Sequence record: OQ411014.1
Direction: 5' to 3' (one strand)
From: Escherichia phage EJP2
Length of the DNA: 64,000 nucleotides
Under the pieces are notes generated by a model, which was given only the letters and a program-made list of their open reading frames with translations, did not search any database and was not told the DNA's origin. Position 1 is the first letter of the stretch; every line of letters starts with the position of its first letter. Shown here piece by piece: positions 4,743 to 58,154 of the stretch. The position numbers and the translations under genes are program-made.

Positions 4743-4760
4743 TATATAAAAGGATTTTAT

Positions 4761-5618: not shown

Positions 5619-5648
5619 TATAATACTATGACTTACAAAGGAGAGCAT

Positions 5649-6218: not shown

Positions 6219-6272
6219 GATTACTCGTGTTCTTGATACATTTTTTACTAATTCAATGAGGTTTTTTATAGT

Positions 6273-6791
6273 ATGCCAAATACAAACAATTACAATATTC
6301 CGTCACTTGCTACTGCCAAATCAGACCGCATTAGTGAACAAAAAGAATATGTGAAACGCCGTACGGATGGTGGTTTTTGTCCAGAAAAGGGTGACCGCGT
6401 ATTCTTCCAAACAACCGACCGTGATGGTAATATTGGTCGCAGTGGTTATGGTAAAGTTAGTGGTAAACATCAGTACAGTTCAAAACACTACATGTACTTT
6501 ATAGACTGTGATGATGCTACAATAGAGAATGTTGTTGTTGGACATCCTAGTGGTTTCTATCCAAAGGACTTTATCCAGTTGGAATCAATGTATAATAAAG
6601 ATAAAGAACTCAAACCTGAAGTTGTACCAAAAGAATACTTTGGTCTATATGACTTCAGAACTCAACGAGTTGAACTTGGAAGTCTATTCACATACCGTTC
6701 TGATACGTTTGAGTATGCAACATCGAAGTACGGAAACCCATTACCACATAATTTAACGATTCGTGCATTCATCATACACGAAAAGTTATAA
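6273..6791 (+). CDS. hypothetical protein (172 aa)
   Basis: ORF track; followed by terminator. Confidence 0.55.
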   Translation: MPNTNNYNIPSLATAKSDRISEQKEYVKRRTDGGFCPEKGDRVFFQTTDRDGNIGRSGYGKVSGKHQYSSKHYMYFIDCDDATIENVVVGHPSGFYPKDFIQLESMYNKDKELKPEVVPKEYFGLYDFRTQRVELGSLFTYRSDTFEYATSKYGNPLPHNLTIRAFIIHEKL

Positions 6792-6798
6792 ATCATAC

Positions 6799-6823
6799 GG
6801 AGTCTTTTTTTAGACTCCTTTTA
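6799..6823 (+). terminator. rho-independent terminator
   Basis: GGAGTCT/AGACTCC hairpin with T-rich loop and tail. Confidence 0.55.
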
Positions 6824-6850
6824 AATTGAATATCCACACTAGGAGTTGTA

Positions 6851-7231
6851 ATGAATCAATTAGATTGGCTAGACAAAGCTCTTGAAAAGATGCGAGCCGA
6901 AGATCCTGAAGTCCTGCACAGAAAGTTATTCGGATTTAGTGCCGCCGAATTTGAACAGTACTGCAACGATTTGACATTCTTTGATGAAGCCAAAACTGTT
7001 CTTGACTTTATGAAGAGCAAAGACTACACGATCATTAACATCTATGATACTGATGATTTTGAGTTACCTTCTCGGATGTTCTTACATTATTTCGAATCTT
7101 ACTGTACTGAAGGATACGATGAATCCTTTTGGAGTGGGTATGGTGCACATACATTGACACATGATGAATTGCAGTTACAATATCTTTTCGTTAATGGTCA
7201 GGGGACTGAACATTTCTTTCGGATTATCTAA
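6851..7231 (+). CDS. hypothetical protein (126 aa)
   Basis: ORF track; TAGGAG RBS. Confidence 0.55.
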   Translation: MNQLDWLDKALEKMRAEDPEVLHRKLFGFSAAEFEQYCNDLTFFDEAKTVLDFMKSKDYTIINIYDTDDFELPSRMFLHYFESYCTEGYDESFWSGYGAHTLTHDELQLQYLFVNGQGTEHFFRII

Positions 7232-7233
7232 CT

Positions 7234-7602
7234 ATGTATGAAGATTACAAAGTAGTACTGGAACCTAAACATCTTGTAAAAATAAAACAAATTTATAAAA
7301 GAGCACATGAGTCCAATGAACCACATTCTTACATTGTAAATAACACAATGTTTTATCTGTGTAAGGGTTTTGCAACAATGACTCGTTCTGGTGGTAATTT
7401 TTATGTAATTTCACAAATGCATAATGACCACATAGAAATCTTCAAAATGAGTTCAATGGGAAAAATTACACATAGCCATACACTCAAATATTGTAATGAT
7501 GAAGACTATTTGTTTCAACTTTCCCTTGTGTGTGATTTTGATTTGACATTAGACGATATGAATCTTATGATTGGTATCCGAGACAATATAGTAAAGGAAT
7601 AA
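7234..7602 (+). CDS. hypothetical protein (122 aa)
   Basis: ORF track. Confidence 0.5.
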   Translation: MYEDYKVVLEPKHLVKIKQIYKRAHESNEPHSYIVNNTMFYLCKGFATMTRSGGNFYVISQMHNDHIEIFKMSSMGKITHSHTLKYCNDEDYLFQLSLVCDFDLTLDDMNLMIGIRDNIVKE

Positions 7603-7603
7603 A

Positions 7604-7816
7604 ATGAAATACCTAATAAAAGAAGTGTTTGCATTTCTGTATGTGTTGCTGTTGAGTATAGGCTCAATTACGTTAGCTCTTACTCCTTCAATTGTGTACC
7701 AATTCATTTGTGTATCAAATGATTATAACTTCGATGAAACGATCCATTTCACATTACGTGTTTTTGGCTTCATTGTGTGGTTATGTGCATTTAGTTATTT
7801 TATGAACAGGAAATAA
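7604..7816 (+). CDS. small membrane protein (70 aa)
   Basis: ORF track; hydrophobic segments. Confidence 0.5.
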   Translation: MKYLIKEVFAFLYVLLLSIGSITLALTPSIVYQFICVSNDYNFDETIHFTLRVFGFIVWLCAFSYFMNRK

Positions 7817-7817
7817 T

Positions 7818-8117
7818 ATGAACAAGCACGAAGTAATTATCTTTGACCGGAAAGTATTCGTACCAACCGAGAACAGTACTGAATCGTACTATCTCATCAA
7901 TGAGATCATGTCCGCAACTAGTACTAGCTGTGAGCAGAAACCAGGTGAGTACATCTTCAGTCAGACCATTGGGTATTATCGTTACAAAGAAAAAGAACAT
8001 TTTGACATTGATTCTGAAAAAATCATTGCAGTACTGAAAGAATGTGGCTATAATGAATGTATTGAAAACGACACTACCTTACCAGTTGTCGTGTTTACAC
8101 TAAACCCAACCATCTAG
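7818..8117 (+). CDS. hypothetical protein (99 aa)
   Basis: ORF track. Confidence 0.5.
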   Translation: MNKHEVIIFDRKVFVPTENSTESYYLINEIMSATSTSCEQKPGEYIFSQTIGYYRYKEKEHFDIDSEKIIAVLKECGYNECIENDTTLPVVVFTLNPTI

Positions 8118-8126
8118 GATAACATT

Positions 8127-8405
8127 ATGCATTTCGAAAAATTCAACGCAAACCGTAACACACGTATTGAAATGTTGTTTGAAACTCAAGATACTATCAG
8201 TATTTGTACTAAGAGTGGTGATGTTTACCATGAATGTACTATTGAGTGGGAACAAGGCCGAACACGTTCTGTTGAGTTTGACAACTACCATTTCAAACAA
8301 GGCGACCGCAAGATCTGGCCTGAACTGGTAGAAAGCATTGCATATGAAGATGAAGATAAAGAATCTTTTATCAAAGAAAATCCAGAAAATGATGAAGATT
8401 TTTGA
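8127..8405 (+). CDS. hypothetical protein (92 aa)
   Basis: ORF track; TAGGA RBS. Confidence 0.5.
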   Translation: MHFEKFNANRNTRIEMLFETQDTISICTKSGDVYHECTIEWEQGRTRSVEFDNYHFKQGDRKIWPELVESIAYEDEDKESFIKENPENDEDF

Positions 8406-8431
8406 GCATTTTGAAGAAAATGTGATATAAT
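8402..8431 (+). promoter_or_regulatory. extended -10 promoter (TTGAGC N18 TGTGATATAAT) upstream of tRNA pair
   Basis: Second copy of TGTGATATAATATAA block. Confidence 0.5.
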
Positions 8432-8485
8432 ATAATTAAGAAAGGGACAACATGATGTTCTTTTCTTGTTAATAAATAGAATACA

Positions 8486-8576
<91 letters not shown>

Positions 8577-8689
8577 GTTTTCAAAAGGTAGCCGAAAGGC
8601 AAGTTTATAGGATTTACGGATAGTTATAAATCTGAATTGACAGCAACTCCTAACAGAGTTACTATCCGCTCCTATCTTTTCTTAATCCA

Positions 8690-8764
8690 CGGGGTATAGC
8701 TTAATGGATAAAGCAGTAACCTTCTAAGTTATTGATCTAAGTTCGATTCTTAGTATCCCGACCA
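8690..8764 (+). tRNA. tRNA-Arg (anticodon UCU)
   Basis: Acceptor CGGGGTA/TATCCCG, anticodon stem GTAAC/GTTAT loop CTTCTAA, T-loop GTTCGATTC, encoded CCA. Confidence 0.75.
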
Positions 8765-8779
8765 AATAAGAGACACAAC

Positions 8780-9286
8780 ATGAACTCCAGAATCTATAAA
8801 GAACTAACTAATATAATGTATGAATTTATGGATTTTGAAGTCCAGCTTGGTGTCATATGGGGTCACACCCAACCCCGTGCCACAGATTTGTTTGAAAACT
8901 GTGGCTATTTTGTTTCTGATTGGTCATGGTATGATGGTCACATTGTATCATTACTTTCTAAACAGTACCCAAATATTGAAATTGACTACGCTGCTTGTGC
9001 TGATTCTTATACATTTAGCAGTACTGAATTTCCTGGTTTGGCAATATGTATAGAAGAAGTTCCTAAGATAAGGACAGAGCCATCAGATCATATCTTTAAT
9101 AGAGTTCCAATTTATAAGGTACTTGAAAATAGGTCAGAAGAAGTACGTATTACTAATCCAACTCCAGAGTTCAGTGAGTTCGTACAAGAATTATGTCAGT
9201 GGGTGATGACATTTGACAAGTCAGAAGAACTTGATTATACTGTCAGTATATATGTACAAGAAAACATTGAGGTCACTGAACTATGA
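8780..9286 (+). CDS. hypothetical protein (168 aa)
   Basis: ORF track. Confidence 0.5.
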   Translation: MNSRIYKELTNIMYEFMDFEVQLGVIWGHTQPRATDLFENCGYFVSDWSWYDGHIVSLLSKQYPNIEIDYAACADSYTFSSTEFPGLAICIEEVPKIRTEPSDHIFNRVPIYKVLENRSEEVRITNPTPEFSEFVQELCQWVMTFDKSEELDYTVSIYVQENIEVTEL

Positions 9287-9720
9287 TCAATTATGAAGCA
9301 GTACTGAAATCATTTATACACTGGTTGAACGACGATATCGTATACAAAACCATTGTGCGTACTAGAAATGATGAATACATTCCTATTCAGTATTTGGATA
9401 AGAATGAAGATATCTTCTTAGATAATGAAAACCTACATTACAGTTATCAACACTGGGAATTGAACACAACTACCCAAGCTGAAAGCCTGACTTCGTACTT
9501 TGGTATTGATATAAATCGTGATGGTTCTATTGTTATATTATATAATCCATCAGGAAGTGTACGTGATAAAACTCCACCTGCACGATTTAATATTAGTACT
9601 ACAGAAGAGGAATTATTCCAACTTAGTACTATCCAAGAGGATTATGACGTAACGATGGAAGTACTGAAAGAGTTTGCTAAACTGCACGAGAAATATTTTG
9701 GGAACCTAGACGATGTGTAA
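9283..9720 (+). CDS. FFQ-motif family protein
   Basis: ORF track; C-terminal TTEEELFQLST. Confidence 0.55.
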   Translation: MINYEAVLKSFIHWLNDDIVYKTIVRTRNDEYIPIQYLDKNEDIFLDNENLHYSYQHWELNTTTQAESLTSYFGIDINRDGSIVILYNPSGSVRDKTPPARFNISTTEEELFQLSTIQEDYDVTMEVLKEFAKLHEKYFGNLDDV

Positions 9721-10159
9721 TAGATATAACATAAAGATGATCCAACGTGGATTTGATGTGTTTAAAAATATCATTGCAGCTTATAGGTTCTTGATGGAAG
9801 TTGATAATCTTTCTGAACTTGACTTATGTAATGATTTCTGTATAATTGATGATGCTGGTAATCGCAATACTGCATCAGCCACTATAGACGATGATAGAAT
9901 AATTTTCTCATTTGACGCTGCTGGTGTTATAGTTGATAACAATGAACTGATTTACACGGAATGTCTATATGATGATTCTGGACATAAAATCAAGTTCATC
10001 GTGAAGAATCCGAAATTCATTGTAAATGAAGAAACATTCTTCCAAGCGAGTATGTTGTATGATTTGTCTGATGTGAAAAGTTACGAATGGTTTGTAACTA
10101 TTATGCAAACATATGATTTCGTTATGGATTTCATGAAAATGGATTTTGAACAATACTAG
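9713..10159 (+). CDS. FFQ-motif family protein (tandem paralog)
   Basis: ORF track; C-terminal VNEETFFQASMLYDLSDV nearly identical to next gene. Confidence 0.55.
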   Translation: MCNRYNIKMIQRGFDVFKNIIAAYRFLMEVDNLSELDLCNDFCIIDDAGNRNTASATIDDDRIIFSFDAAGVIVDNNELIYTECLYDDSGHKIKFIVKNPKFIVNEETFFQASMLYDLSDVKSYEWFVTIMQTYDFVMDFMKMDFEQY

Positions 10160-10167
10160 GACTTAAA

Positions 10168-10572
10168 ATGATTGATCTTCAGAAACTGCTAATGGTTCAG
10201 TATGGTTTTGATGTGTTGTCGAGTAGTGATTTATCGAACGTGAATTTGAAAGATTTTGAATTCATTATCAGAGATGCAAACAATAACAGTACTGATGCTT
10301 ATGCGTCAATTCATAACGAAAGCGTTGATTTCACATTCAATGATTGTTCTGTGTATGTTGATGCTACAGAAATCGAAATCGTTTACCGTGTATATAGTGA
10401 AAACTACGCGGACGATATCGAATATATCCTTTGTATTGAAAATCCAACTTATATAGTGAATGAAGAAACTTTCTTCCAGGCTAGTACACTTCAAGATTTA
10501 TCAGAAGTTCCTGGGTATGAGTGGATTGTTTCTATTATGCAAATGTACAAAAATATTATTACTAAGGTATAA
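10168..10572 (+). CDS. FFQ-motif family protein (tandem paralog)
   Basis: ORF track; C-terminal VNEETFFQASTLQDLSEV; TAGGA RBS. Confidence 0.55.
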   Translation: MIDLQKLLMVQYGFDVLSSSDLSNVNLKDFEFIIRDANNNSTDAYASIHNESVDFTFNDCSVYVDATEIEIVYRVYSENYADDIEYILCIENPTYIVNEETFFQASTLQDLSEVPGYEWIVSIMQMYKNIITKV

Positions 10573-10573
10573 T

Positions 10574-11092
10574 ATGAAAGAGCTTATTGAACGTGTAGAT
10601 TTCTTTGAACTGATTGCATTGGAATTTGATCCAGAATGTACTGATATTCTTTCAGATGTACCAATCTTCCCTATTGAAAACGATGATGGTACTTCATCGT
10701 ACTTAGAAGATTACGAAGATTATTTGCGTAGCTTCTGTCCAACATCAAACGATAAAGTGCATCTCTTTACTGAAATTATTCATGTACAATACAATACAAA
10801 TAATAAAGAAATTGTATTATGTGCAATGGATACATTCAACAGTACTGAAGCTGGTATTGCACGTGAGTATGCTAAACTATATCTCATTGATACAGGTGAG
10901 TATTGTAAACTTACCATCAAGGAAAATTCATTTATATTCAATAACAAAGAATATAAGCTAGGTACTACTGAAGAAGAGAACTTCCAGATTTCATGTACTG
11001 ACATGGGTTACTTCAATAATGTAGTAAATGAAGTAAAGAAATTTATTCTTCAAGATATTGACAAGAATGGATTACCTGAGTATAATAAATAA
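10574..11092 (+). CDS. FFQ-motif family protein
   Basis: ORF track 10460..11092 trimmed to ATG after TAAGGT RBS (track start overlaps upstream gene by >100 nt); motif TTEEENFQISC. Confidence 0.5.
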   Translation: MKELIERVDFFELIALEFDPECTDILSDVPIFPIENDDGTSSYLEDYEDYLRSFCPTSNDKVHLFTEIIHVQYNTNNKEIVLCAMDTFNSTEAGIAREYAKLYLIDTGEYCKLTIKENSFIFNNKEYKLGTTEEENFQISCTDMGYFNNVVNEVKKFILQDIDKNGLPEYNK

Positions 11093-11101
11093 CAGAATTA
11101 C

Positions 11102-11191
11102 AGAAGGTTGGCAGAGCGGCTAAATGCACTCGCCTACTAAGCGAGCACTCGCTCCGGCGAGTCGAGGGTTCGAATCCCCCACCTTCTGCCA
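11102..11191 (+). tRNA. type II tRNA with unusual anticodon loop (apparent anticodon ACU; identity uncertain)
   Basis: Acceptor AGAAGGT/ACCTTCT, T-loop GGTTCGAATCC, long variable arm, encoded CCA; anticodon stem CTCGC/GCGAG with loop CTACTAA. Confidence 0.6.
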
Positions 11192-11204
11192 TATTAGGAT
11201 TTCA

Positions 11205-11594
11205 ATGATGACAATGCATGTGTACGATGAGTATGAAGAACGTATAAAACATGAAATCCAAAGTTATTTGGATGGTGTCAATAAAAAATTGAAATACAGT
11301 TCGGGTAAACGTTTTCAATCATTCACCCTAGAATACATGGATTGTGATGATTATAAACAACGCAGAATAACTATAAAAATTGCAGTTGATCCGAAGTTTA
11401 GTTGTGTGCATTCATCTTTACAGATAGATTCCACTTTTGGTGAAGATGAAGATCAATACTGGAGTGGTTTTTCCTATATACCAGAAAGTGAAGAAAAGCA
11501 CTTTCAAGAAACGTTACTCAATAAACAGATTTTAAGCTGGGATTTATTGCAGTACTTGATTGTTTTCTTCACTAAAATGCAAAATAAAGATTGA
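11205..11594 (+). CDS. FFQ-motif family protein
   Basis: ORF track 11124..11594 trimmed because track start lies inside the tRNA; ATG after AGGAT RBS; motif SEEKHFQETL. Confidence 0.5.
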   Translation: MMTMHVYDEYEERIKHEIQSYLDGVNKKLKYSSGKRFQSFTLEYMDCDDYKQRRITIKIAVDPKFSCVHSSLQIDSTFGEDEDQYWSGFSYIPESEEKHFQETLLNKQILSWDLLQYLIVFFTKMQNKD

Positions 11595-11641
11595 CTGTAC
11601 TGTAATGAACTAGTATTATATTACTTAGAGGATATAAAAAC

Positions 11642-12001
11642 ATGGCAGTTCAGGATTTTTCAAAATATGAAAAGTTTCTTAGAACATTTTTGAATTCCAA
11701 ATTAACATCTTACGATGCAGCACATAGTGAAGATAAACCAGCACGTCGCATTGTAAATGAAAATCAAGATTCATTTATTATTACTAATGATGAAATTATT
11801 TTTGAATCATTTGAAGATATAAAAAGACCTGCAAAACCAACTTTACAAGATATCGTAAATAGCTTAAATGCTAGATACATTACCTTTCAGTTGTGTAATG
11901 ATGAAGAAGATGAATTTCAGAAAAGTACAGTATATGAGAATATCTTTCCACATGAATTAAATTCTGTTATACTTGATATACTGAATAGTACTGAACAGTA
12001 G
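11642..12001 (+). CDS. FFQ-motif family protein
   Basis: ORF track; RBS AGAGGA; promoter TTGACT N17 TATTAT upstream; motif EEDEFQKST. Confidence 0.55.
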   Translation: MAVQDFSKYEKFLRTFLNSKLTSYDAAHSEDKPARRIVNENQDSFIITNDEIIFESFEDIKRPAKPTLQDIVNSLNARYITFQLCNDEEDEFQKSTVYENIFPHELNSVILDILNSTEQ

Positions 12002-12028
12002 ATATCAGTACTGATAAAAGGGTAACAC

Positions 12029-12238
12029 ATGAAAGCACGAGAACTTGCTAAAATTCTGATGGATAATCCCGAAGCTGAAGTTGTTTTGAATGATAATGAA
12101 TCAAATTATCAATTTTCACATATTGCCTGTACTGAAACTTTTTATAAAGATTCGTATGCTGAATCTTGGCAAAACGATGATAACAAAACTATTTCAGAAA
12201 ATGAAAAATTCAAAGTTGATGTAATAGTTTTGTACTGA
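12029..12238 (+). CDS. small protein, MKxxELxxIL N-terminal family
   Basis: ORF track; N-terminus MKARELAKILMDNPEAEVV shared with 13494, 14536 and 16293 genes. Confidence 0.5.
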   Translation: MKARELAKILMDNPEAEVVLNDNESNYQFSHIACTETFYKDSYAESWQNDDNKTISENEKFKVDVIVLY

Positions 12239-12445
12239 TATAATGAATTCCACAATCAGACGTATATGGTGTAAGTTACGTCGATGTAATCCAGAACAAG
12301 ATCTCTGGTACTCTAGGAAGTGGTGAATGTTAACCTAGACGGGTTTGATAATTGGACGATAGGCAATTATTACTTGACTAGCAGGTTTAAACTAGAGGTG
12401 ACAGTCCTTCACCAAACTGGAAAACCGGATGGACTTTTTAATTTA

Positions 12446-12540
<95 letters not shown>

Positions 12541-12607
12541 TATTGTTCCGAAAAGAATCGAGTTCTAAGATTTGTGATAACTTGTCTTAGTATAAGATTT
12601 TGTGTAA

Positions 12608-12686
<79 letters not shown>

Positions 12687-12695
12687 TCCAAATTC

Positions 12696-12769
12696 GGCCC
12701 TTTAGCTCAGTTGGTTAGAGCAGAGAACTCATAATTCTTTGGTCACTGGTTCGAGTCCAGTAGGGGCCA
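12696..12769 (+). tRNA. tRNA-Met (anticodon CAU; could equally be a lysidine-modified tRNA-Ile)
   Basis: Acceptor GGCCCTT/AGGGGCC, D-arm AGCTCAGTTGGTTAGAGC, anticodon loop CTCATAA, T-loop GGTTCGAGTCC; CCA not encoded. Confidence 0.8.
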
Positions 12770-33758: not shown

Positions 33759-34751
33759 ATGACTGTAAAACAACTCAATCTAGAATCTATTCAAGACGAT
33801 ATCATGGATGAATGTTTTGTAAATGAAAACAATACGTTCGAGCGTATTAGTGAACAGTCACATGACAGTACTGAAGAAGTAGAAGAAAGTACTGATGACG
33901 TAGGTTCTTTCAAGACTTACAACACATCTAGCGTTTTACCAGAAGGTGAGACGAATGAATCTATTATTCGTTTAATCCGTGACGGTATCAATGTGAAGCG
34001 TAACATTGACCTTATCGTACGTAACAACGTAGGCTTAGTATATAGCCAAGCACGTCAGTGTACTTGTAATATCCCATTCCAAGATAAAGCACAGTACGCT
34101 TTTGAAGGTCTAATGCGTGCAATCCATCGTTATGATGTGAATCAGAATATTCTTTTCAGTACTTACGCTACTGTGTCTATTCGCCAAACACTCTATAACT
34201 TTGGTAATGATGAAGTTCGTCTAATCAGTATTCCACGTCACTTGTCAGTGGATAACATCAAGATTCAGAACTACATTGAGAAGCATCGTTCTAAGTTCGG
34301 TCGTACCCCAAGTGAAGATGAAATCAGTACTGCTACTGGCATCAAGTTATCCGCAGTGAAACGTGTAGTGCAGTACATGAACAGTAAGCCAATGAGTTTC
34401 GATACTCCAATGGGTTCTGACAGTACTGAAAACGATATGAGCTTAGTGGATGTAATCCCAGGAACTTCCAATGATTACACACTAAGTGCAGATACAGTTC
34501 AGAAAGCACCACTAGATGTAATTGCATTGGTCATGTCTGAACTACCAGAAGAAGAGCAGTTGCTGATCAATAAGATTCACGGCTTGAATGGACATGAAGA
34601 AAGTACTTTTATTGCTCTAGAGACTGCTGGATTGGTAGATGCGAAGGGTAAGAAGCTAACTAACCGTTGCACTATTCATCGTCGTTACAATGCAATACTG
34701 GATAAGATTCGTAATATTCTAAAAGCACGTGACATTTCATTCGATGACTGA
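33759..34751 (+). CDS. RNA polymerase sigma factor, sigma70 family
   Basis: Region 2 match VGLVYSQARQ..FEGLMRAIHRYD..FSTYATVSIRQT and C-terminal region-4-like helix-turn-helix; AAGGAG RBS. Confidence 0.7.
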   Translation: MTVKQLNLESIQDDIMDECFVNENNTFERISEQSHDSTEEVEESTDDVGSFKTYNTSSVLPEGETNESIIRLIRDGINVKRNIDLIVRNNVGLVYSQARQCTCNIPFQDKAQYAFEGLMRAIHRYDVNQNILFSTYATVSIRQTLYNFGNDEVRLISIPRHLSVDNIKIQNYIEKHRSKFGRTPSEDEISTATGIKLSAVKRVVQYMNSKPMSFDTPMGSDSTENDMSLVDVIPGTSNDYTLSADTVQKAPLDVIALVMSELPEEEQLLINKIHGLNGHEESTFIALETAGLVDAKGKKLTNRCTIHRRYNAILDKIRNILKARDISFDD

Positions 34752-35470: not shown

Positions 35471-35476
35471 AACAAA

Positions 35477-35512
35477 ATGCTTGACTTCGGTCGAGCATTC
35501 TTTTAATATAAT
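35477..35512 (+). promoter_or_regulatory. terminator-promoter module (hairpin containing -35 TTGACT, T-run, -10)
   Basis: ATGCTTGAC-TTCG-GTCGAGCAT hairpin then TTTT then TAATAT. Confidence 0.5.
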
Positions 35513-35549
35513 TGCATCAACTACACTACTACACTTGAGGATAACAATC

Positions 35550-39371: not shown

Positions 39372-39677
39372 ATGATTGGTGTAAATTGGAATATCATTGT
39401 ATTATGTGTACCGTTGTTATTCATGACTATTGCAATGCTTGTCCGAATGTGGAAGCCCAGCATCACTGAAAAGGATATCGGATTCAATCCGCTGATTCAG
39501 CTACTCGACAATGTTTTATGTATGTGGGTAGTACTGGCATTCGTTTGGCTCTATGTATTCAATGAAGATTATCTAAACGCCAGAGCAGCACTGTATTCAA
39601 TGATTGCACTTGGGTGGTTGTGGTTGACGTGCTTCACTATTCAAACTACAGTAAAGTTCTTTCAAAATAAGGGTTGA
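39372..39677 (+). CDS. membrane protein (101 aa)
   Basis: ORF track. Confidence 0.5.
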   Translation: MIGVNWNIIVLCVPLLFMTIAMLVRMWKPSITEKDIGFNPLIQLLDNVLCMWVVLAFVWLYVFNEDYLNARAALYSMIALGWLWLTCFTIQTTVKFFQNKG

Positions 39678-39700
39678 CTTCGGTCAACCTTTTTTGAGCC
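39671..39700 (+). terminator. rho-independent terminator (hairpin-with-TTGACT family)
   Basis: GGTTGAC-TTCG-GTCAACC then TTTTTT. Confidence 0.55.
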
Positions 39701-44018: not shown

Positions 44019-44040
44019 ATAACAATTCAGTACTGAAGAA

Positions 44041-44073
44041 TGGGTTGACTTAGGTCAGCCCTTTTGTTATAAA
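44041..44073 (+). promoter_or_regulatory. terminator-promoter module (GGGTTGACTTAGGTCAGCCC hairpin, T-run, TATAAA)
   Basis: -35 TTGACT inside hairpin stem, 17 nt spacer, -10 TATAAA. Confidence 0.55.
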
Positions 44074-47082: not shown

Positions 47083-47095
47083 CATCATAAAAGGG

Positions 47096-47124
47096 TTGAC
47101 TTCGGTCAGCCCTTTCTGTATTAT
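47096..47124 (+). promoter_or_regulatory. terminator-promoter module (GGGTTGACTTCGGTCAGCCC, TATTAT)
   Basis: -35 TTGACT in hairpin stem, 17 nt spacer, -10 TATTAT. Confidence 0.55.
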
Positions 47125-47151
47125 ACATACATCAACTGAGAGGATAATTAA

Positions 47152-48860: not shown

Positions 48861-50039
48861 TTATGGTAAATCAAATTCCGTATATGAATATTTGTATACA
48901 CCATCTGGTCCACGACCTGAGTATCGTAATTTACCAGAAGTAGTTATATATGCTGAAGTAATATTACTAGTACTGAATATGTTAAACACTGACTTCATAT
49001 CATTCACTGTACCGTTACCGAATGGTATCAGGTTAAGTTCATTGCCGTTGACACCAGTACTCAATCTTCCTGAAGAATTTGCTCCACAACCATATGCATT
49101 TGATGGGCTAAGAGCAACGTAACCAGTATTACTAGTATAATAACTTAGTAAACCAATAAAATTCTCTGTAGTGGCTATTTCAGTAAAGACTCTAATATTG
49201 ACAGAACTATTCACTCCATTACCTAAGTTTCCAGCATTCTGGCTTCCCGCAGCATATAGATGTGTTTTACCAGTACCGTCACTGTACAATATTGTGAATG
49301 CTGATTCAGTTAGACCAATATCAAAAACACTAAGACCTGGGTCTGGTAGTGGTACTTGTGTTAGCACATTTATTCTTGTATCTGGATGACCAATACCGAG
49401 TTGACCAAATGAGTTTGAACCTGAAACCCAAACACTTAAATCATTTTTTAATATCAGTACTGATGAATTAACAAATTCAACTTTTTGAACATCTGATGTA
49501 AGTTTTGAGAAAGTAGTTAGTGCAAGATAATTACCAGTTGCTAGTTGGCCTTGGTTATTAAAACCGCTTCTATAAAGATCACCATTGTTCATTAATATAT
49601 ATAATGCATATACACCAGCATGAACAGATGTTATTTGATTAAGATTCCCTGTACCTATACCAGCTTCAATAAATGGGGTACAATCAGTATATGATGTCAC
49701 AACTTCAGTAGATGATGTATTGCCAGTTTGAAAGCTACGGCGACCAGTATATAATAATTTTCCATCCATAGTTTTAATGATAACAAAACTTGTGTTTGTA
49801 CACCAAACATCTTGAACATCATCTCTGATTAAAGTCCACTCTAGCTTTTGTTCTGTTGGCTTTCCATCCCCATAGATATAATTATCAACTGTTCCTCCAC
49901 CGATACCATACAATCTGTTATCATCATATAATACCATAAATGCCGGACGAGACGATGCATAAGGTACTAATATTTTTGTAATTTCAGGTAATGAAGGTGC
50001 TTTATTACCATAATTAAGCATTCGTACAAAAGGTAACAT
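48861..50039 (-). CDS. RCC1-like repeat (beta-propeller) protein (392 aa)
   Basis: ORF track; GGAGA RBS on minus strand; repeated G-x-N-x-x-G-Q/N-L-G motifs (GFNNQGQLATG, GSNSFGQLGIG, GSQNAGNLGNG). Confidence 0.65.
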   Translation of the reverse strand: MLPFVRMLNYGNKAPSLPEITKILVPYASSRPAFMVLYDDNRLYGIGGGTVDNYIYGDGKPTEQKLEWTLIRDDVQDVWCTNTSFVIIKTMDGKLLYTGRRSFQTGNTSSTEVVTSYTDCTPFIEAGIGTGNLNQITSVHAGVYALYILMNNGDLYRSGFNNQGQLATGNYLALTTFSKLTSDVQKVEFVNSSVLILKNDLSVWVSGSNSFGQLGIGHPDTRINVLTQVPLPDPGLSVFDIGLTESAFTILYSDGTGKTHLYAAGSQNAGNLGNGVNSSVNIRVFTEIATTENFIGLLSYYTSNTGYVALSPSNAYGCGANSSGRLSTGVNGNELNLIPFGNGTVNDMKSVFNIFSTSNITSAYITTSGKLRYSGRGPDGVYKYSYTEFDLP

Positions 50040-53037: not shown

Positions 53038-53226
53038 ATGCTAATTTACAATAACAATGGTATTAGAGTACTTCAGCATGAATACTTACAAGTGTTTCAT
53101 GTACAGAAGTTCATGGAGGGTGATAATCCTCGGAGCTATGGTCGTACGATGGATTACTTCACTGTAAAGGAATGCTATAGTATTCAAGAAGTTCGTGAAG
53201 TTGTATCTGAATTACTTGAAGAATAA
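53038..53226 (+). CDS. hypothetical protein (62 aa), possibly C-terminal part of split kinase-like gene
   Basis: ORF track; begins 2 nt after previous stop in another frame. Confidence 0.4.
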   Translation: MLIYNNNGIRVLQHEYLQVFHVQKFMEGDNPRSYGRTMDYFTVKECYSIQEVREVVSELLEE

Positions 53227-53239
53227 TATTAGAAAGGGG

Positions 53240-53269
53240 TTGACTTCGGTCGGCCCTTTTTGTTATAAT
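53240..53269 (+). promoter_or_regulatory. terminator-promoter module (GGGGTTGACTTCGGTCGGCCC, TATAAT)
   Basis: -35 TTGACT in hairpin, T-run, -10 TATAAT. Confidence 0.55.
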
Positions 53270-53301
53270 CATTACATCGACAACCAATAGGAAATCTAAA
53301 A

Positions 53302-53964: not shown

Positions 53965-53974
53965 AATAAAAGGG

Positions 53975-54004
53975 TTGACTTCGGTCGGCCCTTTTTGCTA
54001 TAAT
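53975..54004 (+). promoter_or_regulatory. terminator-promoter module (GGGTTGACTTCGGTCGGCCC, TATAAT)
   Basis: Same architecture as 53240 copy. Confidence 0.55.
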
Positions 54005-54034
54005 CATTTCAACTTCTGATGAAAGGAAAATTAT

Positions 54035-54283
54035 ATGTTCGCACTACGCCACAAAGAAACAAAGAACTTCATGTGTATTGATACACAGTGGGATTGCTTT
54101 GGTAGTACTGAAGTATTGGAAGAACACGCTGAGAACGTCTTTGTTGTTAGTGAACGTTCATTGTTGGAAGCACTAATTGAGGACTTCAATGCTGGTACTA
54201 ATGCATTCTCTCTGAACTTTCCGGTTGTTGCAGATCCAGAAGCATTTGTTATGTACGAAATTGTAGAACTTACTGTGAAATAG
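54035..54283 (+). CDS. hypothetical protein (82 aa)
   Basis: ORF track; AAAGGAAA RBS. Confidence 0.5.
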   Translation: MFALRHKETKNFMCIDTQWDCFGSTEVLEEHAENVFVVSERSLLEALIEDFNAGTNAFSLNFPVVADPEAFVMYEIVELTVK

Positions 54284-54300
54284 TATCATTGGAGATAACC

Positions 54301-54597
54301 ATGAAAGCACTGACCGCCGTAGAAATCAAAGAGCAATACAAAGATTTATTCGAGTTTAAACACAACGGTGAAGAATTCAAACGTAGTAGTACTGTACGTG
54401 ACTTCTTGAACAAACTCTTCTGTACTAAGTTCAAAGCTGCGTACATTACTATGCCTGAGCGTACTTCAAGTGCAGAAGATATCAAGAAGTTCGGTTTAGG
54501 TTGGGATGCACAATCAATCATCCTGGTGAATGCAGATGAAGAGCTAGTGTACTTGACTAACTCCGAGTGGGCTTCTTTCATGTATCTTCGTAAATAA
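54301..54597 (+). CDS. hypothetical protein (98 aa)
   Basis: ORF track 54289..54597 (TTG) trimmed to ATG after GGAGA RBS. Confidence 0.5.
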   Translation: MKALTAVEIKEQYKDLFEFKHNGEEFKRSSTVRDFLNKLFCTKFKAAYITMPERTSSAEDIKKFGLGWDAQSIILVNADEELVYLTNSEWASFMYLRK

Positions 54598-54606
54598 GGA
54601 ACTATA

Positions 54607-54789
54607 ATGAAACTGAAACGTTATGACCGCAATCGTATTATGGATGCTTTGTATCGTGAAGAAATTTCACTCAATAAGGTGAAAGTGTACTTTATGTTAG
54701 AAGGACGGCTTCCAGCACGTAAAGCTAAACAGTTAGCTATTGAACTGTTGAACGAAGGTATTGAGTACTGGCATTATGACGGATATTGA
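54607..54789 (+). CDS. hypothetical protein (60 aa)
   Basis: ORF track; TAAGGAA RBS. Confidence 0.45.
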   Translation: MKLKRYDRNRIMDALYREEISLNKVKVYFMLEGRLPARKAKQLAIELLNEGIEYWHYDGY

Positions 54790-54800
54790 TTTGTGAAATA

Positions 54801-54856
54801 AAAGGTTGACTTCGGTCAGCCTTTTTCGTATTATGTACTCATCGAAACGAAGGAGA
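54801..54856 (+). repeat. repeated ~55 bp promoter-leader cassette, copy 1 (hairpin with TTGACT, TATTAT, leader, AAGGAG)
   Basis: Near-identical to copies at 56641 and 56937. Confidence 0.6.
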
Positions 54857-54865
54857 TATAAAAAA

Positions 54866-55102
54866 ATGAAACTATCTTTTATACGATTGGGTCAATTCTT
54901 CGGTACTAATGTTATAACTTTACAACAAATTGCAGATAATACATCTCTAACGATTCAAGAAGTACTTGACTTGGATGACATAAATTACGATACTACATGT
55001 ATCGAGTACAAAGAAGGTCTTATCGAAAAGGATAAGATTCAGGCTAAAATTAATGGTGCTGGAAAAGTTCAGTACTGGAAGGGAGTGTTAAGTAATGTGT
55101 AA
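54866..55102 (+). CDS. hypothetical protein (78 aa)
   Basis: ORF track 54806..55102 trimmed: track start is TTG of the promoter -35 and the first 20 codons translate the cassette; ATG after AAGGAG RBS. Confidence 0.5.
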   Translation: MKLSFIRLGQFFGTNVITLQQIADNTSLTIQEVLDLDDINYDTTCIEYKEGLIEKDKIQAKINGAGKVQYWKGVLSNV

Positions 55103-56192
55103 CTTTGATGTTTTAGATTGTTTTTCTGTAGATGAAATTATTTATGAACCCAAATCACATAATTCAGTATCCCCAGGGCAATATGAAAAGAAAATAACAG
55201 AGTTATTTTCATTAAATGATCATAATGTTGTTTTTATCGGATTCAATATGAAAACCGCCAATGAATGGCAAGCGGGTGATACTAAAGTACATTTTAAACT
55301 CGTCAACAAATATTACGAGGATATTTTTTCTGATGTGACAATAGAAAAGATTATCAAAAAATTTAAGAAAAAAACCTACAAACCTAAACATAAAAAATTA
55401 ACAATGGAAATTATTGAATATCAGGCCAAGGCTGTATCTTACTTAAAAGGCCATCGGATTATATCATTTGGTCCATTTGATGGTGCACTCACTAAAATTG
55501 AGATGGAATGTCTAATGGATTCACATACGTGGTCTACCAGTTACAATTCATATGTGACAAATGACAAAGGTTGTGTTAAATGTGGAATTGTAGTGACCTC
55601 TGAGTTTCACCGGACAAATCACGATGATGTGAACTTGTTCTTAAAAGAAAATGGAGATATTAACAATTATGATTTATATGAAGAATTCATATATTCTAAT
55701 AATTTAACAATAATAAAAAGAATTTGCAAAATATGTAATCATGGTAAATGTGGAGAATGGAAAACGTCTTATGAATGCATTAAGAATCGTGATCATCAGT
55801 GTCCAGTATGTAAGACAACTGAAGCTCGGTGCATCAAACGTGATCTAGATCCGATTTTTAGTGGGTTCGGTGTGGTAGAATGTGAAAAAAAATATGATGA
55901 TTGTAGGATGATTAATCATTTACGCTACGACCGCTTCATCCCGAAACTCAACATGTTATTTGAATATGATGGAGAGCAACATTTCAATAAGAGGAACATT
56001 CGTTGGCATGGTGAAAGTGGTGAAAAACGTGATCAAATAAAAACAGAGTTCGCAATCAACAACGGTTACAACTTCATTAGGATTGCATACTATGAAGACC
56101 ACGTTGCAGTACTGGAATCTTTCCTTAAACTCATAGAAGAGAACCCAGGAAAGCAAATCGTACAGATCTATGGTGATGTGAAAATTATCTAA
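55095..56192 (+). CDS. PD-(D/E)xK nuclease-like protein (Vsr/DUF559-like), possible homing endonuclease
   Basis: ORF track; C-terminal FEYDGEQHF..RDQIKTEFAINNGYNFIRI resembles E-x-DG-x-x-H..RD..GW-x-x-R nuclease core; Cys-rich middle; markedly AT-rich. Confidence 0.5.
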   Translation: MCNFDVLDCFSVDEIIYEPKSHNSVSPGQYEKKITELFSLNDHNVVFIGFNMKTANEWQAGDTKVHFKLVNKYYEDIFSDVTIEKIIKKFKKKTYKPKHKKLTMEIIEYQAKAVSYLKGHRIISFGPFDGALTKIEMECLMDSHTWSTSYNSYVTNDKGCVKCGIVVTSEFHRTNHDDVNLFLKENGDINNYDLYEEFIYSNNLTIIKRICKICNHGKCGEWKTSYECIKNRDHQCPVCKTTEARCIKRDLDPIFSGFGVVECEKKYDDCRMINHLRYDRFIPKLNMLFEYDGEQHFNKRNIRWHGESGEKRDQIKTEFAINNGYNFIRIAYYEDHVAVLESFLKLIEENPGKQIVQIYGDVKII

Positions 56193-56201
56193 AATAAAAG
56201 G

Positions 56202-56230
56202 TTGACTTCGGTCAGCCTTTTTGCTATTAT
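56202..56230 (+). promoter_or_regulatory. terminator-promoter module (GGTTGACTTCGGTCAGCC, TATTAT)
   Basis: -35 in hairpin, 17 nt spacer. Confidence 0.55.
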
Positions 56231-56366
56231 ATCAGTACTATCAATGTGAAAGAGTTCGATAAACATCTGAAGAAGAATGGCTTCGATACGAACAACTTTG
56301 CTATCAGTAGTATTACTGAAATCATGATTCAATACAACATTATTGTAGATACATTACGAGGGTAAA

Positions 56367-56633
56367 ATGAAACCAATCACAACAACACAGAGTACTAACC
56401 TAACGGTTTTACATGATGGTTTAAAAGGTACAGTACGTGATCTTCTGAACTTCATTGATAGTATTCAAGGTGATACCGGATACTGCATTTATACTACTAT
56501 CATTCCTGGTGGTACAGAACTGTACTTCACCAATATGGAAGTATCGGAATCGGGTGAAACTGATGATTCATTCCAAGAAGCCATCCAACAATTTCAGGAA
56601 TCCTTAGAGGATTTAGGTTTTACGGTACAATGA
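56367..56633 (+). CDS. hypothetical protein (88 aa)
   Basis: ORF track; GAGGG RBS. Confidence 0.5.
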   Translation: MKPITTTQSTNLTVLHDGLKGTVRDLLNFIDSIQGDTGYCIYTTIIPGGTELYFTNMEVSESGETDDSFQEAIQQFQESLEDLGFTVQ

Positions 56634-56640
56634 CGAAAAA

Positions 56641-56698
56641 AAGGTTGACTTCGGTCAGCCTTTTTCGTATTATGTACTCATCGAAACGAAGGAGATTA
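56641..56698 (+). repeat. repeated promoter-leader cassette, copy 2
   Basis: AAGGTTGACTTCGGTCAGCCTTTTTCGTATTATGTACTCATCGAAACGAAGGAGAT. Confidence 0.6.
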
Positions 56699-56700
56699 TT

Positions 56701-56832
56701 ATGTATATTTTAATAGTGGAGTACTGCTTCTATACTCTATGGATTTACTTAGGTTGTCGATATGGCTTACCTTTATTTGGTAAGTACTTCTTAGATTCTG
56801 GTTCAGACAAATATGGCGAGAGAAATGACTAA
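56701..56832 (+). CDS. small hydrophobic protein (43 aa)
   Basis: ATG directly downstream of cassette RBS; uninterrupted frame found by hand. Confidence 0.35.
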   Translation: MYILIVEYCFYTLWIYLGCRYGLPLFGKYFLDSGSDKYGERND

Positions 56833-56936
56833 AGGAATGCAGAAGTTAAACTGTTCGTGAAAACTCAAGACTGGCCTGAAGTTGTACAGCAAGTAATATG
56901 TTCATTCACTAAGACTGAACTAATATAAGAAAAAAT

Positions 56937-56990
56937 GGTTGACTTCGGTCAGCCTTTTTCGTATTATGTACTCATCGAAACGAAACGTAC
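56937..56990 (+). repeat. repeated promoter-leader cassette, copy 3
   Basis: Same cassette; explains identical spurious N-terminus MTSVSLFRIMYSSKR of track ORFs 54806 and 56939. Confidence 0.6.
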
Positions 56991-57004
56991 TAAGGATTAA
57001 GAAA

Positions 57005-57775
57005 ATGAACCGCACAGAAAAAGCAATGCAAATCGAAAAGAACTTCAACTCCATGATGGCTGCTCTTGAATGTCTTCTGGATACCCAAGCTAACTCAATC
57101 AACTCTCTGATTGTTTCTGGTAAAGGTGGTGTTGGTAAAACTTATAACGTAGACAAACGTCTGCAACAAGCAGATAACAACTACGAAATCGACTACAAAA
57201 AGATTTCTGGTAAAGTAACTACTATGGGTCTGTACGAAGCACTGTATCACTCTCGCCACGCTGCTTCAGTACTGTTACTCGATGACGTTGATATCTTCGG
57301 TGACGAAACTAATATCGACCTCCTTAAAGCAGTACTGGATACTTCCGATAAGCGTGTTGTTTCTTATGCAACTTCCGGTAAGCACTTGGACGCGATGGGT
57401 ATTCCTAAGCAGTTCGAGTTCCGTGGTAAAGTGATCTTCCTGACGAACAAAAACCTGTCACAGATTGCTAAAGGTAAAAGCAGTTTAGCACCACACATCG
57501 ATGCTCTGATTACTCGTAGTATCTTCGTGGACCTGCAACTGTTCAGCAACGAAGAAGTAATGATTCACATCGAAAACGTTATGTCCAAAACTAACATTCT
57601 GGAAAACCAGTTCGTTAGTCCAGAAGGTGCAGGTCACATTCTGAACTTCATGCTCAAGAATGAAGATCGTCTGCGTAGTCCTTCTCTGCGTATGCCAGTA
57701 CTGATCGCTGGCTTGTATAATAAGTTCCCGTTTGATTGGGAATCAATGGCTGAAAACATGTTCCTGGAGAAATAA
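57005..57775 (+). CDS. P-loop ATPase with deviant Walker A (ParA/MinD-like)
   Basis: ORF track 56939..57775 trimmed to ATG after TAAGGA RBS; Walker A SGKGGVGKT, Walker B-like VLLLDDVD; host-optimal codon usage. Confidence 0.6.
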   Translation: MNRTEKAMQIEKNFNSMMAALECLLDTQANSINSLIVSGKGGVGKTYNVDKRLQQADNNYEIDYKKISGKVTTMGLYEALYHSRHAASVLLLDDVDIFGDETNIDLLKAVLDTSDKRVVSYATSGKHLDAMGIPKQFEFRGKVIFLTNKNLSQIAKGKSSLAPHIDALITRSIFVDLQLFSNEEVMIHIENVMSKTNILENQFVSPEGAGHILNFMLKNEDRLRSPSLRMPVLIAGLYNKFPFDWESMAENMFLEK

Positions 57776-57776
57776 T

Positions 57777-58154
57777 ATGCAAATGTTCTTGACACCTTTT
57801 GGTTCAATCTGTTTAGTACTGGAAACTTTCCTATCTGTTGCAGTACTATGTATGCTGATTGGGAAGTTCTTTAATGCTCGCCCATTCAATAAGTACTATG
57901 ATGCAATTTATGATCAAAGTGAAAGTGAAGGCGTAGCTATCTTTCAATTGCTGGTGGCTATCGTAATCGCTACTATCCTTGCATGGATTGGTATCATCGG
58001 GGAATTCGAACTCCTAACAGAATTTTCAGTTGTAGCAGCTTCTGTGTGTACTGCCTTTACAATTCTGTACTTTACAATCTGTGCAGTGGATGCTATTATT
58101 CCTTATATCAAAAACGTGCACCACAAAATCGTAAAGAAAACCAACGGGGAATAA
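57777..58154 (+). CDS. multi-pass membrane protein, tandem family member 1
   Basis: ORF track 57732..58154 trimmed to ATG after GGAGA RBS; C-terminus HHKIVKK. Confidence 0.5.
   Translation: MQMFLTPFGSICLVLETFLSVAVLCMLIGKFFNARPFNKYYDAIYDQSESEGVAIFQLLVAIVIATILAWIGIIGEFELLTEFSVVAASVCTAFTILYFTICAVDAIIPYIKNVHHKIVKKTNGE

Follow-up and report, generated by a model that had tools for sequence, protein, structure and literature searches.

The window analysed here is a 64,000-nucleotide (nt) stretch of Escherichia phage EJP2 (OQ411014.1), and all coordinates count from its position 1. Between its small genes it carries a family of short repeats, the fullest of which join a hairpin, a predicted promoter, a leader and a Shine-Dalgarno sequence (SD). 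These repeats are very probably composite cassettes of the promoter-early stem-loop (PeSL) type, lying in an early small-gene region and acting as recombination substrates for the genes between them. The evidence that carries this reading is a set of naturally occurring relatives that differ from the window by whole modules, with crossovers inside the cassettes. The best matches of the window are ~350-kb Escherichia, Klebsiella, Yersinia and Erwinia phages (the classified ones belonging to Asteriusvirus, Caudoviricetes) and place it in a RaK2/121Q-like (Asteriusvirus) jumbo coliphage. Small genes in a + strand array make up the region, which is poorly conserved across the phage group: megablast aligned 35% of 54000-58000 and 11% of 33000-57999, both to phage Turkey5, and sigma-70-like sites number 47 on the + versus 3 on the - strand.

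A sequence-only reading had pointed to three near-identical copies of a promoter-leader cassette within 2.2 kb. This was borne out by a repeat search with copy 1 (54797-54857) as reference, which gave 98% identity for copy 2 (56636-56696; 60/61 nt) and 89% over 61 nt for copy 3 (56930-56990), both far above the 80% set as the lower limit for the claim. The places given for the copies (54801, 56641 and 56937) were right, with a mutual register off by 0-3 nt, and the count of three was incomplete. A fourth copy at 56193-56253, within the same 2.2 kb, had been overlooked, as had six further hairpins in the window; it is 67% identical to copy 1 over 61 nt, with hairpin and T-run in common and divergence thereafter, the common stretch being only the 30-nt AATAAAAGGTTGACTTCGGTCAGCCTTTTT. 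The trio shares a perfect 48-nt core, GGTTGACTTCGGTCAGCCTTTTTCGTATTATGTACTCATCGAAACGAA (GGTTGAC...CGAAACGAA), at 54804-54851, 56643-56690 and 56937-56984. Past this core copies 1 and 2 continue with GGAGAT, which makes their SD AAGGAG, and copy 3 reads ACGTACTAAGGATTAAGAAA up to its ATG; the sharing of hairpin, -10, leader and AAGGAG attributed to all three copies therefore extends to the whole leader and ribosome-binding site in copies 1 and 2 only, copy 3 having a distal leader and ribosome-binding site of its own. The window holds ten occurrences of the 18-nt hairpin core, where chance predicts 0.01, all of them on the + strand (at 35479, 39672, 44043, 47094, 53238, 53973, 54804, 56200, 56643 and 56937), and six of the ten are packed into 3.8 kb. 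Cassettes elsewhere in the window average 33% identity over the 24 nt after the -10. The members are the following, all on the + strand.

54797-54865, + strand: cassette copy 1, between a 60-aa gene (stop 54789) and a 78-aa gene (ATG 54866); hairpin 54800-54825, core 54804-54821, loop TTCG; T-run 54822-54826; -35 TTGACT 54806-54811; -10 TATTAT 54829-54834; leader GTACTCATCGAAACGAA; SD AAGGAG 54850-54855
56193-56245, + strand: fourth cassette, after the stop of an HNH gene (56192) and before a 39-aa open reading frame (ORF; GTG 56246); hairpin core 56200-56217; -35 56202-56207; -10 TATTAT 56225-56230 with TG extended -10
56636-56700, + strand: cassette copy 2, between an 88-aa gene (stop 56633) and a 43-aa ORF (ATG 56701); hairpin core 56643-56660; -35 56645-56650; -10 56668-56673; SD AAGGAG 56689-56694
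56930-57004, + strand: cassette copy 3, preceding an AAA-like ATPase gene (ATG 57005); hairpin core 56937-56954; -35 56939-56944; -10 56962-56967; SD AAGGA 56992-56996
53230-53301, + strand: member of another subtype (GGGGTTGAC..GGCCC, TG-TATAAT -10), preceding a 220-aa gene
53965-54034, + strand: member of the TG-TATAAT subtype, preceding an 82-aa gene
47086-47150, + strand: distal member with -10 TATTAT; hairpin core 47094-47111
35471-35540, + strand: distal diverged member (GCTTGAC..GTCGAGC, with compensatory stem changes) with a -10-like TAATAT
39664-39695, + strand: hairpin-only member (GGGTTGAC-TTCG-GTCAACC and T-run, no -10), a half cassette with its core at 39672, predicted to be a terminator only
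44035-44066, + strand: hairpin-only member (loop TTAG, no properly spaced -10), a half cassette

The order of elements is an A-run, GGTTGAC, a TTCG loop, GTCAGCC, a T-run, two bases, TATTAT, a leader, the SD and a start codon. The -35 TTGACT is formed by the last five bases of the 5' arm and the first loop base and stands 17 nt before the -10, with the T-run inside this 17-nt promoter spacer (GGTTGAC-TTCG-GTCAGCC-TTTTT-CG-TATTAT). A consensus scanner reporting sequence matches found TTGACT-17-TATTAT (10/12 match) at 54806, 56202, 56645 and 56939, which supports the earlier promoter-leader reading and to which a terminator hairpin is now added, and TTGACT-18-TATAAT (11/12 match) at 53240 and 53975. 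Terminators were reported by the scanner at 56638 and 56937; the remaining copies share the terminator core, the scanner having counted part of the T-run as stem. The terminator features are a stem of 7-13 pairs with at least 4 G-C pairs, a UUCG loop and 4-6 T residues. Upstream stop codons (54789, 56192, 56633) lie 3-11 nt before the hairpin or A-run, copy 3 being preceded by a 97-nt spacer and not by an adjoining stop, and downstream an SD and a start codon (ATG or GTG) follow at 54866, 56246, 56701 and 57005. The end of the U-run falls ~14-15 nt before the expected +1. The cassette is thus predicted to be a combined terminator and sigma-70 promoter. The genes behind the trio are unrelated, as had been claimed: a 78-aa gene of phrog_34150, the family-less 43-aa ORF and the 256-aa AAA-like gene of phrog_1250. 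Identical spurious N-terminal extensions, described for the three copies, are present in two ORFs, those at 54806 and 56939, both of which open with TTG-MTSVSLFRIMYSSKR, where the TTG belongs to the -35 hexamer. A second leader promoter of the TGAAACG type reported for CBB and GAP32 was rejected on inspection, its spacing to any TATA being unfit.

Folded as RNA, the hairpins have energies of -13.5 to -18 kcal/mol, and their z-scores relative to shuffles are -3.4 to -5.8. We compared 37 distinct hairpins, selected by seven contiguous pairs, from the window, Turkey5, 121Q, CRJP21, JNE01, vB_Ec-M-J, Hallingskeid, RaK2, fHe-Yen9-04 and a metagenomic jumbo contig. Standard pairs fill 93.7% of the pair cells, and both sides have changed in 17 cells versus 4.7 in shuffles (0/500 shuffles reach 17). 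Pair 7-26, which lies outside the selection criterion, is GC in 21 copies, AU in 9, UA in 2 and GU in 3, and in 31 of the 37 copies a U.G wobble, which can form in the + sense RNA only, stands at pair 10-23. Nearly all loops belong to the UNCG type (TTCG, TACG, TCCG). The wobble confined to the + sense and the UNCG loops argue for selection on an RNA hairpin, a terminator or attenuator, rather than on a DNA palindrome. An Rfam scan of the whole window returned six tRNAs only and assigned the cassette to no family.

Natural recombinants and crossover positions

Turkey5, scanned over positions 1-350,000 of 351,311, is ~68% identical to the window or unalignable outside three islands, which span 54023-54851 (97%), 56191-56690 (98.8%) and 56929-57777 (90%); of the six island ends, all but one fall no further than 2 nt from a cassette footprint. 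Turkey5 is without 56691-56928, the module of the 43-aa ORF, and carries there one cassette, which is flanked on the left as copy 2 is and on the right as copy 3 is. Here and below, absence and replacement are relative to the window, insertion and deletion being indistinguishable in these data. Further variants came from metagenome contigs, from which stretches were retrieved through exact-protein look-ups; the 29 stretches compared (designated L018 and so on) match the window at 96-100% identity in the blocks they share with it and differ in their module sets. For the following variants the identity of these blocks is 98-100%. L018 is without 54835-56191 and 56691-56928 and additionally carries a 464-aa gene, on whose flanks the 53973 cassette is duplicated, L020 and L022 are without 56691-56928, and L029 (a MEGAHIT k119 contig) and L031 are without 54858-56635, the 43-aa ORF following the 60-aa gene directly.

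The recombinant junctions are clean: each sequence follows its left parent as far as the cassette and its right parent from there on. Crossing of copy 1 with the 56193 cassette (event a) leaves an interval of 30 nt that comprises the hairpin only, copy 2 with copy 3 (event b) one of 48 nt, anywhere in the core, and copy 1 with copy 2 (event c) one of 58 nt, extending to the SD. Together with event d, all of these have both ends in cassettes and are clean parental chimeras. The proposal of recent duplication or cassette exchange is supported on the side of exchange by the chimeric junctions in Turkey5 and the metagenome contigs. The evidence for recent exchange is the shared leader and these junctions, because hairpin identity alone is uninformative on recency.

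We then took a census of structural events of at least 40 bp in window positions 23761-60929 (~37 kb) against the 29 stretches. It yielded ten distinct events with 20 breakpoints, 11 of which map to cassette footprints or no more than 18 nt away from one, the footprints covering 2.9% of the span. This enrichment has P = 1.5e-12 under a uniform null, 6.6e-6 under a gene-junction null (10/80 junctions with a hairpin) and 0.014 when computed per event.

In four Asteriusvirus relatives cassettes stand in the same three slots, before the denV-like, 78-aa and AAA-like genes, and their subtype there differs (GGGTTGAC...GCCCTTTTTGCTATAAT.ATTTCATCAAC), whereas the CGTATTATGTACTCATCGAAACGAA subtype is restricted to the window, Turkey5 and near-identical metagenome genomes and has therefore spread among slots within this sub-lineage. 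The word "recent" is to be qualified accordingly, since the CGTATTATGTACTCATCGAAACGAA subtype also occupies two corresponding Turkey5 positions and its spread reaches beyond this genome. In Turkey5 elements with the -35 in the hairpin occur only at 9-19 kb and 304-325 kb, two early small-gene regions flanking the record origin, and none in the replication and structural core at 20-304 kb. A second cassette sub-family, GGATTGAC-TC[AC]G-GTCAGTCC with a -10 TATTAT and then ATAT.CAT, was seen in the 9-19 kb region of Turkey5 at 9578, 13321, 16626 and 18888. Such region-specific, homogenised subtypes are consistent with local concerted evolution.

In the mechanism we propose, the hairpin (A-run, GGUUGAC, cUUCGg, GUCAGCC, U-run) would terminate or attenuate incoming early transcription, and the same hairpin DNA would supply the -35 TTGACT of a sigma-70 promoter with the T-run in its spacer. 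A fresh transcript would start ~7 nt after the -10, with a short leader and the SD for the next gene, so that each gene or gene pair would form a transcriptionally insulated module. Direct repeats of 30-60 nt flanking the modules would allow homologous recombination to delete, insert or swap them, leaving the expression of the neighbours undisturbed. The recombination would probably be performed by the phage's own T4-type UvsX/UvsY/gp46-47 machinery; Turkey5 encodes a RecA/UvsX-like protein, UvsY, recombination endonuclease subunits and endonuclease VII. Breaks introduced by homing-endonuclease-like genes may stimulate this repeat-mediated recombination; we see them as likely to contribute to it, not to take its place.

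Several points weigh against this explanation. Promoter and terminator function are predictions from sequence, and the trio is without the TG extended -10 present in other copies, so that its promoter may be weaker. The cassette-associated events all fall into one cluster at 53.9-57.0 kb, a locus that may be hot for another reason; in the sampled relatives no event was seen at the five other hairpins of the window, and four of the ten events are without cassette involvement. Finally, most variants come from metagenome assemblies, some with a coverage of 3-4.

Exchanged modules and the endonuclease slot

The modules between the cassettes, and the gene that closes the array, are listed below; Pfam and PHROG scans covered ten ORFs of 52.6-57.8 kb.

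54866-56192, + strand: module from copy 1 to the 56193 cassette, made up of the 78-aa gene and a 365-aa HNH/homing-endonuclease-like gene
54866-55102, + strand: 78-aa gene, phrog_34150
55095-56192, + strand: 365-aa endonuclease-like gene, matching phrog_559 (HNH endonuclease) and phrog_9084 (homing endonuclease)
56246-56633, + strand: module from the 56193 cassette to copy 2, with the 39-aa ORF and the 88-aa gene, both family-less
56701-56929, + strand: module from copy 2 to copy 3, with the hydrophobic 43-aa ORF (56701-56832) and the 97-nt spacer
57005-57775, + strand: AAA-like gene, 256 aa, phrog_1250, downstream of copy 3 (predicted promoter)

The first module is absent in L018, L029 and L031, in the latter two together with the second. 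Turkey5 has an unrelated DUF4379 gene in place of the whole first module, both of whose genes are absent from the scanned Turkey5 genome, and the exchange in L019 and L024-L028 is confined to the endonuclease gene, replaced there by other endonuclease-like genes. The third module, a repeat-delimited unit of 294 bp, is present in the window and six relatives (L019, L021, L028, L029, L030 and, at 96% identity, L031) and absent in Turkey5, L018, L020 and L022. The AAA-like gene is a conserved anchor with a cassette upstream in every relative examined. At the other side of the cluster, the 53973 cassette is in relatives the site of an indel of the denV module and of the insertion of the 464-aa gene with its duplicated cassette.

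An alternative driver would be the mobility of the homing-endonuclease-like genes, whose breaks and co-conversion would create the mosaic, the cassettes serving as nearest homology for repair (e.g., by single-strand annealing) or being incidental. The 365-aa ORF with its matches to phrog_559 and phrog_9084 fits such a scenario, as do the HNH/DUF723/DUF4379/CapR-type endonuclease-like genes that alternate at the same place in relatives, and the cassette-associated events surround this slot, which in Turkey5 is flanked by the high-identity islands. Moreover, the left ends of the endonuclease-gene swaps, at 55097/55098, coincide with a gene boundary and not with a cassette. Yet cassettes hold both ends of events b and c and of the 464-aa insertion, which are perfect parental chimeras, the indel of the 43-aa module proceeds without any endonuclease gene, and the endonuclease genes are not shared where the high-identity islands are. 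We therefore regard homing as an unlikely replacement for cassette-mediated recombination, in which it fits as a stimulator.

Independently of the question of the driver, the slot after the 78-aa gene is, by its gene content, a hot spot for homing-endonuclease-like genes, with a different endonuclease-like protein in almost every relative: a 365-aa HNH protein in the window, a 376-aa DUF723, a 466-aa DUF4379/DUF723 and a 543-aa protein, in Turkey5 a 527-aa DUF4379 protein, and endonuclease-like proteins of 371-547 aa in other Asteriusviruses. The 464-aa gene of L018 (1600-2994), which encodes a CapR domain, is inserted one slot upstream.

The 97-nt spacer (56833-56929) of the third module is an open frame without start codon (RNAEVKLFVKTQDWPEVVQQVICSFTKTELI and a stop), ending just before copy 3, and may be the 3' remnant of a truncated gene that travels with the module. 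Its derivation from a paralogue of the 62-aa gene at 53038-53226 was considered and set aside, the similarity to the 3' end of that gene being weak (13/500 shuffles score as high). Outside the close relatives, the 43-aa module has one distant homologue in Erwinia phage Hallingskeid (60% aa identity) in another gene context; this is too little for a case of inter-genus transfer, the Hallingskeid homologue not being flanked by cassettes on both sides.

Known systems and distribution of the design

PeSLs were described for RB49/phi1 (PMC2839356) and later for PST/T4 and nt-1/KVP40 (PMC4122927) as an A/T-rich lead-in, a G/C-clamped stem-loop, a sigma-70-like early promoter and an SD (PMC2839356; PMC4122927). 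The stem-loop of the nt-1 type reads A3-4G3-loop-C3T3-4 and is followed by a consensus -35 (PMC4122927), and Arbiol et al. 2010 distinguished five subclasses by stem-loop position, one of them overlapping the -35 box (PMC2839356), so that the present architecture falls inside the published definition. For RB49/phi1, promoter and terminator activity (lacZ fusions) and mini-circles (inverse PCR) were shown experimentally (PMC2839356); the favoured mechanism is general recombination, for which less than 50 bp of homology is needed (PMC2839356; PMC4122927). The cassettes of the window resemble PeSLs in the predicted composite of terminator stem-loop, sigma-70 early promoter and SD, in the concentration of many copies in hyperplastic regions of small ORFans, in cassette-bounded indels and replacements with one chimeric cassette where a module is missing, and in crossovers between the -10 and SD/ATG or in the stem-loop. 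Unlike the published cases, they belong to a ~350-kb Asteriusvirus jumbo phage outside the T4-like groups studied, the -35 in a hairpin with UNCG tetraloop is the rule here and one of five subclasses there, and the evidence for exchange consists of population-level metagenome variants instead of one phage pair. Gene-sharing networks link RaK2-like phages with T4-like viruses, and the Asteriusvirus relatives are Caudoviricetes with T4-type recombination proteins, as seen in Turkey5. In the literature searched we found no description of such cassettes or PeSLs in RaK2, 121Q, PBECO4, CBB, PA5oct or Asteriusvirus; the CBB and PA5oct papers give RpoD-like promoters and terminators in separate lists, the RaK2 paper mentions neither, and at least one GenBank record labels the element merely "terminator". 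The mechanism is thus already known from T4-like phages, and the phage group is apparently new for it.

Experiments on promoter-coupled terminators (Fletcher et al., bioRxiv 2026, doi 10.64898/2026.08.19.745784) have established that stem-loop DNA can serve as a -35; in these elements termination is mapped no more than 35 nt (modal 8-11 nt) ahead of the start site. The two designs have in common a stem-loop that doubles as -35, a T-tract in the spacer, a -10 next to it and a position between tandem genes. The promoter-coupled terminators are chromosomal, non-repeated, without a recombination role and defined by mapped RNA ends, whereas the elements described here form a repeated, recombining phage family recognised by its motifs. 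For the internal-protein (IP) loci of T-even phages, Arbiol et al. 2010 also discussed PeSL-like repeats, with reference to Repoila et al. 1994 (PMC2839356). There, as here, promoter-plus-stem-loop repeats flank small, variable, non-essential genes and have been proposed to confine shuffling, but they contain T4-type early promoters and weaker, AT-rich stems and are analogues rather than homologues. Short intergenic repeat families carrying promoters are also present in halovirus HF2 (PMC8707807), an archaeal virus with archaeal promoter motifs, for which the abstract establishes neither a terminator hairpin nor module shuffling.

Integron cassettes offer a further parallel. Most of these lack a promoter, and their movement depends on a dedicated tyrosine recombinase that acts on folded attC sites. 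Small single-gene modules between imperfect-palindrome repeats, presence or absence in close relatives and proposed circular intermediates are common to both, but the modules here carry their own predicted promoter and terminator. The hairpin might be the target of dedicated site- or structure-specific recombination, an attC-like, integron-like capture with circular intermediates. Its extreme conservation across genera and the endonuclease VII encoded in Turkey5 could be taken in this sense, and Arbiol et al. speculated on a stem-loop-binding recombination factor and detected mini-circles in RB49/phi1 (PMC2839356). The crossovers, however, use the longest identical stretches and differing cassette parts in each event, as general homologous recombination predicts; the Pfam and PHROG scans of the ten local ORFs revealed no recombinase or integrase family, the small module genes being family-less; and the conservation of the hairpin is accounted for by its dual promoter and terminator role. 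No small circular contig was seen among the three contigs carrying the 43-aa ORF. Dedicated recombination in this general form is quite improbable. A specific version to which we give a slightly better, still slim chance is that a structure-specific phage factor (endonuclease-VII-like or homing-endonuclease-like) recognises the cUUCGg hairpin, nicks or breaks the DNA and releases packageable mini-circles of cassette plus ORF, which would be reinserted at the cassettes of a co-infecting jumbo phage. If true, this would amount to integron-like exchange of self-expressed cassettes across the RaK2-like phages of Escherichia, Klebsiella, Yersinia, Erwinia and Cronobacter.

The design reaches far beyond this phage group. 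In IMG/VR the exact 23-mer GGTTGACTTCGGTCAGCCTTTTT is present in only four contigs, of 345-358 kb, and the 18-mer with R at two positions in 47 stretches of ~30 contigs, multi-copy in RaK2-like genomes of 345-378 kb and with 1-2 copies in contigs of 108-250 kb. The 37-nt composite occurs in 173 isolate phage records, among them phages of Vibrio (48), Escherichia (34), Aeromonas (19), Klebsiella (12), Pectobacterium (10) and Cronobacter (10); the Vibrio records include KVP40-like phages of ~245-255 kb, although the published nt-1/KVP40 consensus differs in -35 position. Even Brochothrix phage A9 is among the 173, and composites of 35-37 nt occur in unrelated large phages, including the Brochothrix phages A9 and BtpYZU04 of a Gram-positive host. 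The 18-mer appears to be a nearly unique solution for fusing TTGAC, a cUUCGg hairpin and a U-run, and we infer that its recurrence reflects function and possibly convergence. Horizontal spread was considered as an explanation of the hairpin identity across phages and rejected as unnecessary, because TTGAC, UUCG and the complement nearly fix the 18-mer, which occurs even in the phage of a Gram-positive host. Cronobacter phages of the CR3/CR9 type carry the composite, and the CR3-like copies share the leader motif CATCGAAACGAAAC with the trio. This recurrence in unrelated phages points either to convergence on an optimal design or to an initial transcribed sequence that is conserved.

The occurrence of the hairpin, and even of the 37-nt composite, in 173 records of very different lineages, together with a leader motif, CATCGAAACGA, that returns in other subtypes and other phages, would suit the view that the copies are alike through functional constraint or convergence only and are neither recombination substrates nor duplicated or exchanged. 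Constraint alone leaves unexplained the perfect 48-nt identity of the trio (60/61 nt for copies 1 and 2) against an average of 33% after the -10 elsewhere, as well as the different subtype at orthologous Asteriusvirus slots, and it is largely refuted by the chimeric junctions of the natural variants; its probability is very low. Lower still is that of assembly artefacts, i.e., mis-joins or collapse at 50-60 nt repeats, which repeats longer than k can cause and which the many contigs ending inside copy 1 might bring to mind, given that Turkey5 is an isolate genome carrying the copy 2/copy 3 fusion, that the copy 1/copy 2 fusion stands in a MEGAHIT k119 contig (k exceeding the repeat) and in a Logan contig from another sample, that the same junctions recur across independent samples and that stopping at a repeat is the expected conservative behaviour of assemblers and not mis-joining.

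Recombination at PeSL-type cassettes, as the favoured explanation, would extend the little-cited PeSL shuffling model from T4-like phages to the ~350-kb RaK2/121Q group, and the several natural genomes that differ only by cassette-bounded modules help to explain the turnover of early accessory genes in jumbo phages. For annotation, the TTG of the -35 yields false N-terminal extensions, and the cassettes would mark transcription-unit boundaries in unannotated early regions of jumbo phages. As a compact insulator of ~40 nt, predicted to combine terminator and promoter, the cassette might be of use in phage engineering. For assembly, repeats of 50-60 nt break or can mis-join the genomes of this phage group; many independent metagenome contigs (L033-L037, L023-L027) end inside copy 1, just past the 60-aa gene, or inside copy 2.

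Further features of the window

The palindromic octamer CAGTACTG is present 84 times in the 64-kb window against 1.1 expected (0/100 shuffles reach 84), for example at 139, 2969, 18714, 29054, 38736, 50090, 53921, 55070, 56107 and 57696. It is also the most frequent octamer of the scanned Turkey5 genome, with 208 occurrences in 350 kb, where AGTACT occurs 989 times. It is evenly distributed along the genome and its genes, with 68 of the 84 copies in coding sequence and no positional bias; within genes, codon frame 0 is used in 3/68, and the flanks show a weak preference (T-rich before, AA after). A literature search on the over-representation of CAGTACTG returned no explanation, and in a brief look it appeared unrelated to the cassettes. 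The octamer may be a DNA-level signal, such as a modification, binding or recombination site.

Six phage tRNAs (Thr, three Ser, Arg and Met) form a cluster at 682-12769; one tRNA-Ser, at 11102-11191, has the anticodon ACT according to ARAGORN, with an unusual unmodified A34. In the otherwise + strand array, a lone minus-strand gene at 48861-50039 encodes 392 aa with RCC1/WD40-like repeats, and at 330-346 kb Turkey5 has a long minus-strand run of RCC1/HERC1-like genes. A phage gene of the sigma-70 family at 33759-34751 (330 aa, Sigma70_r2/r3 domains) is 100% conserved in at least 23 public contigs; its homologue was proposed in the CBB paper to help in the takeover of host transcription.

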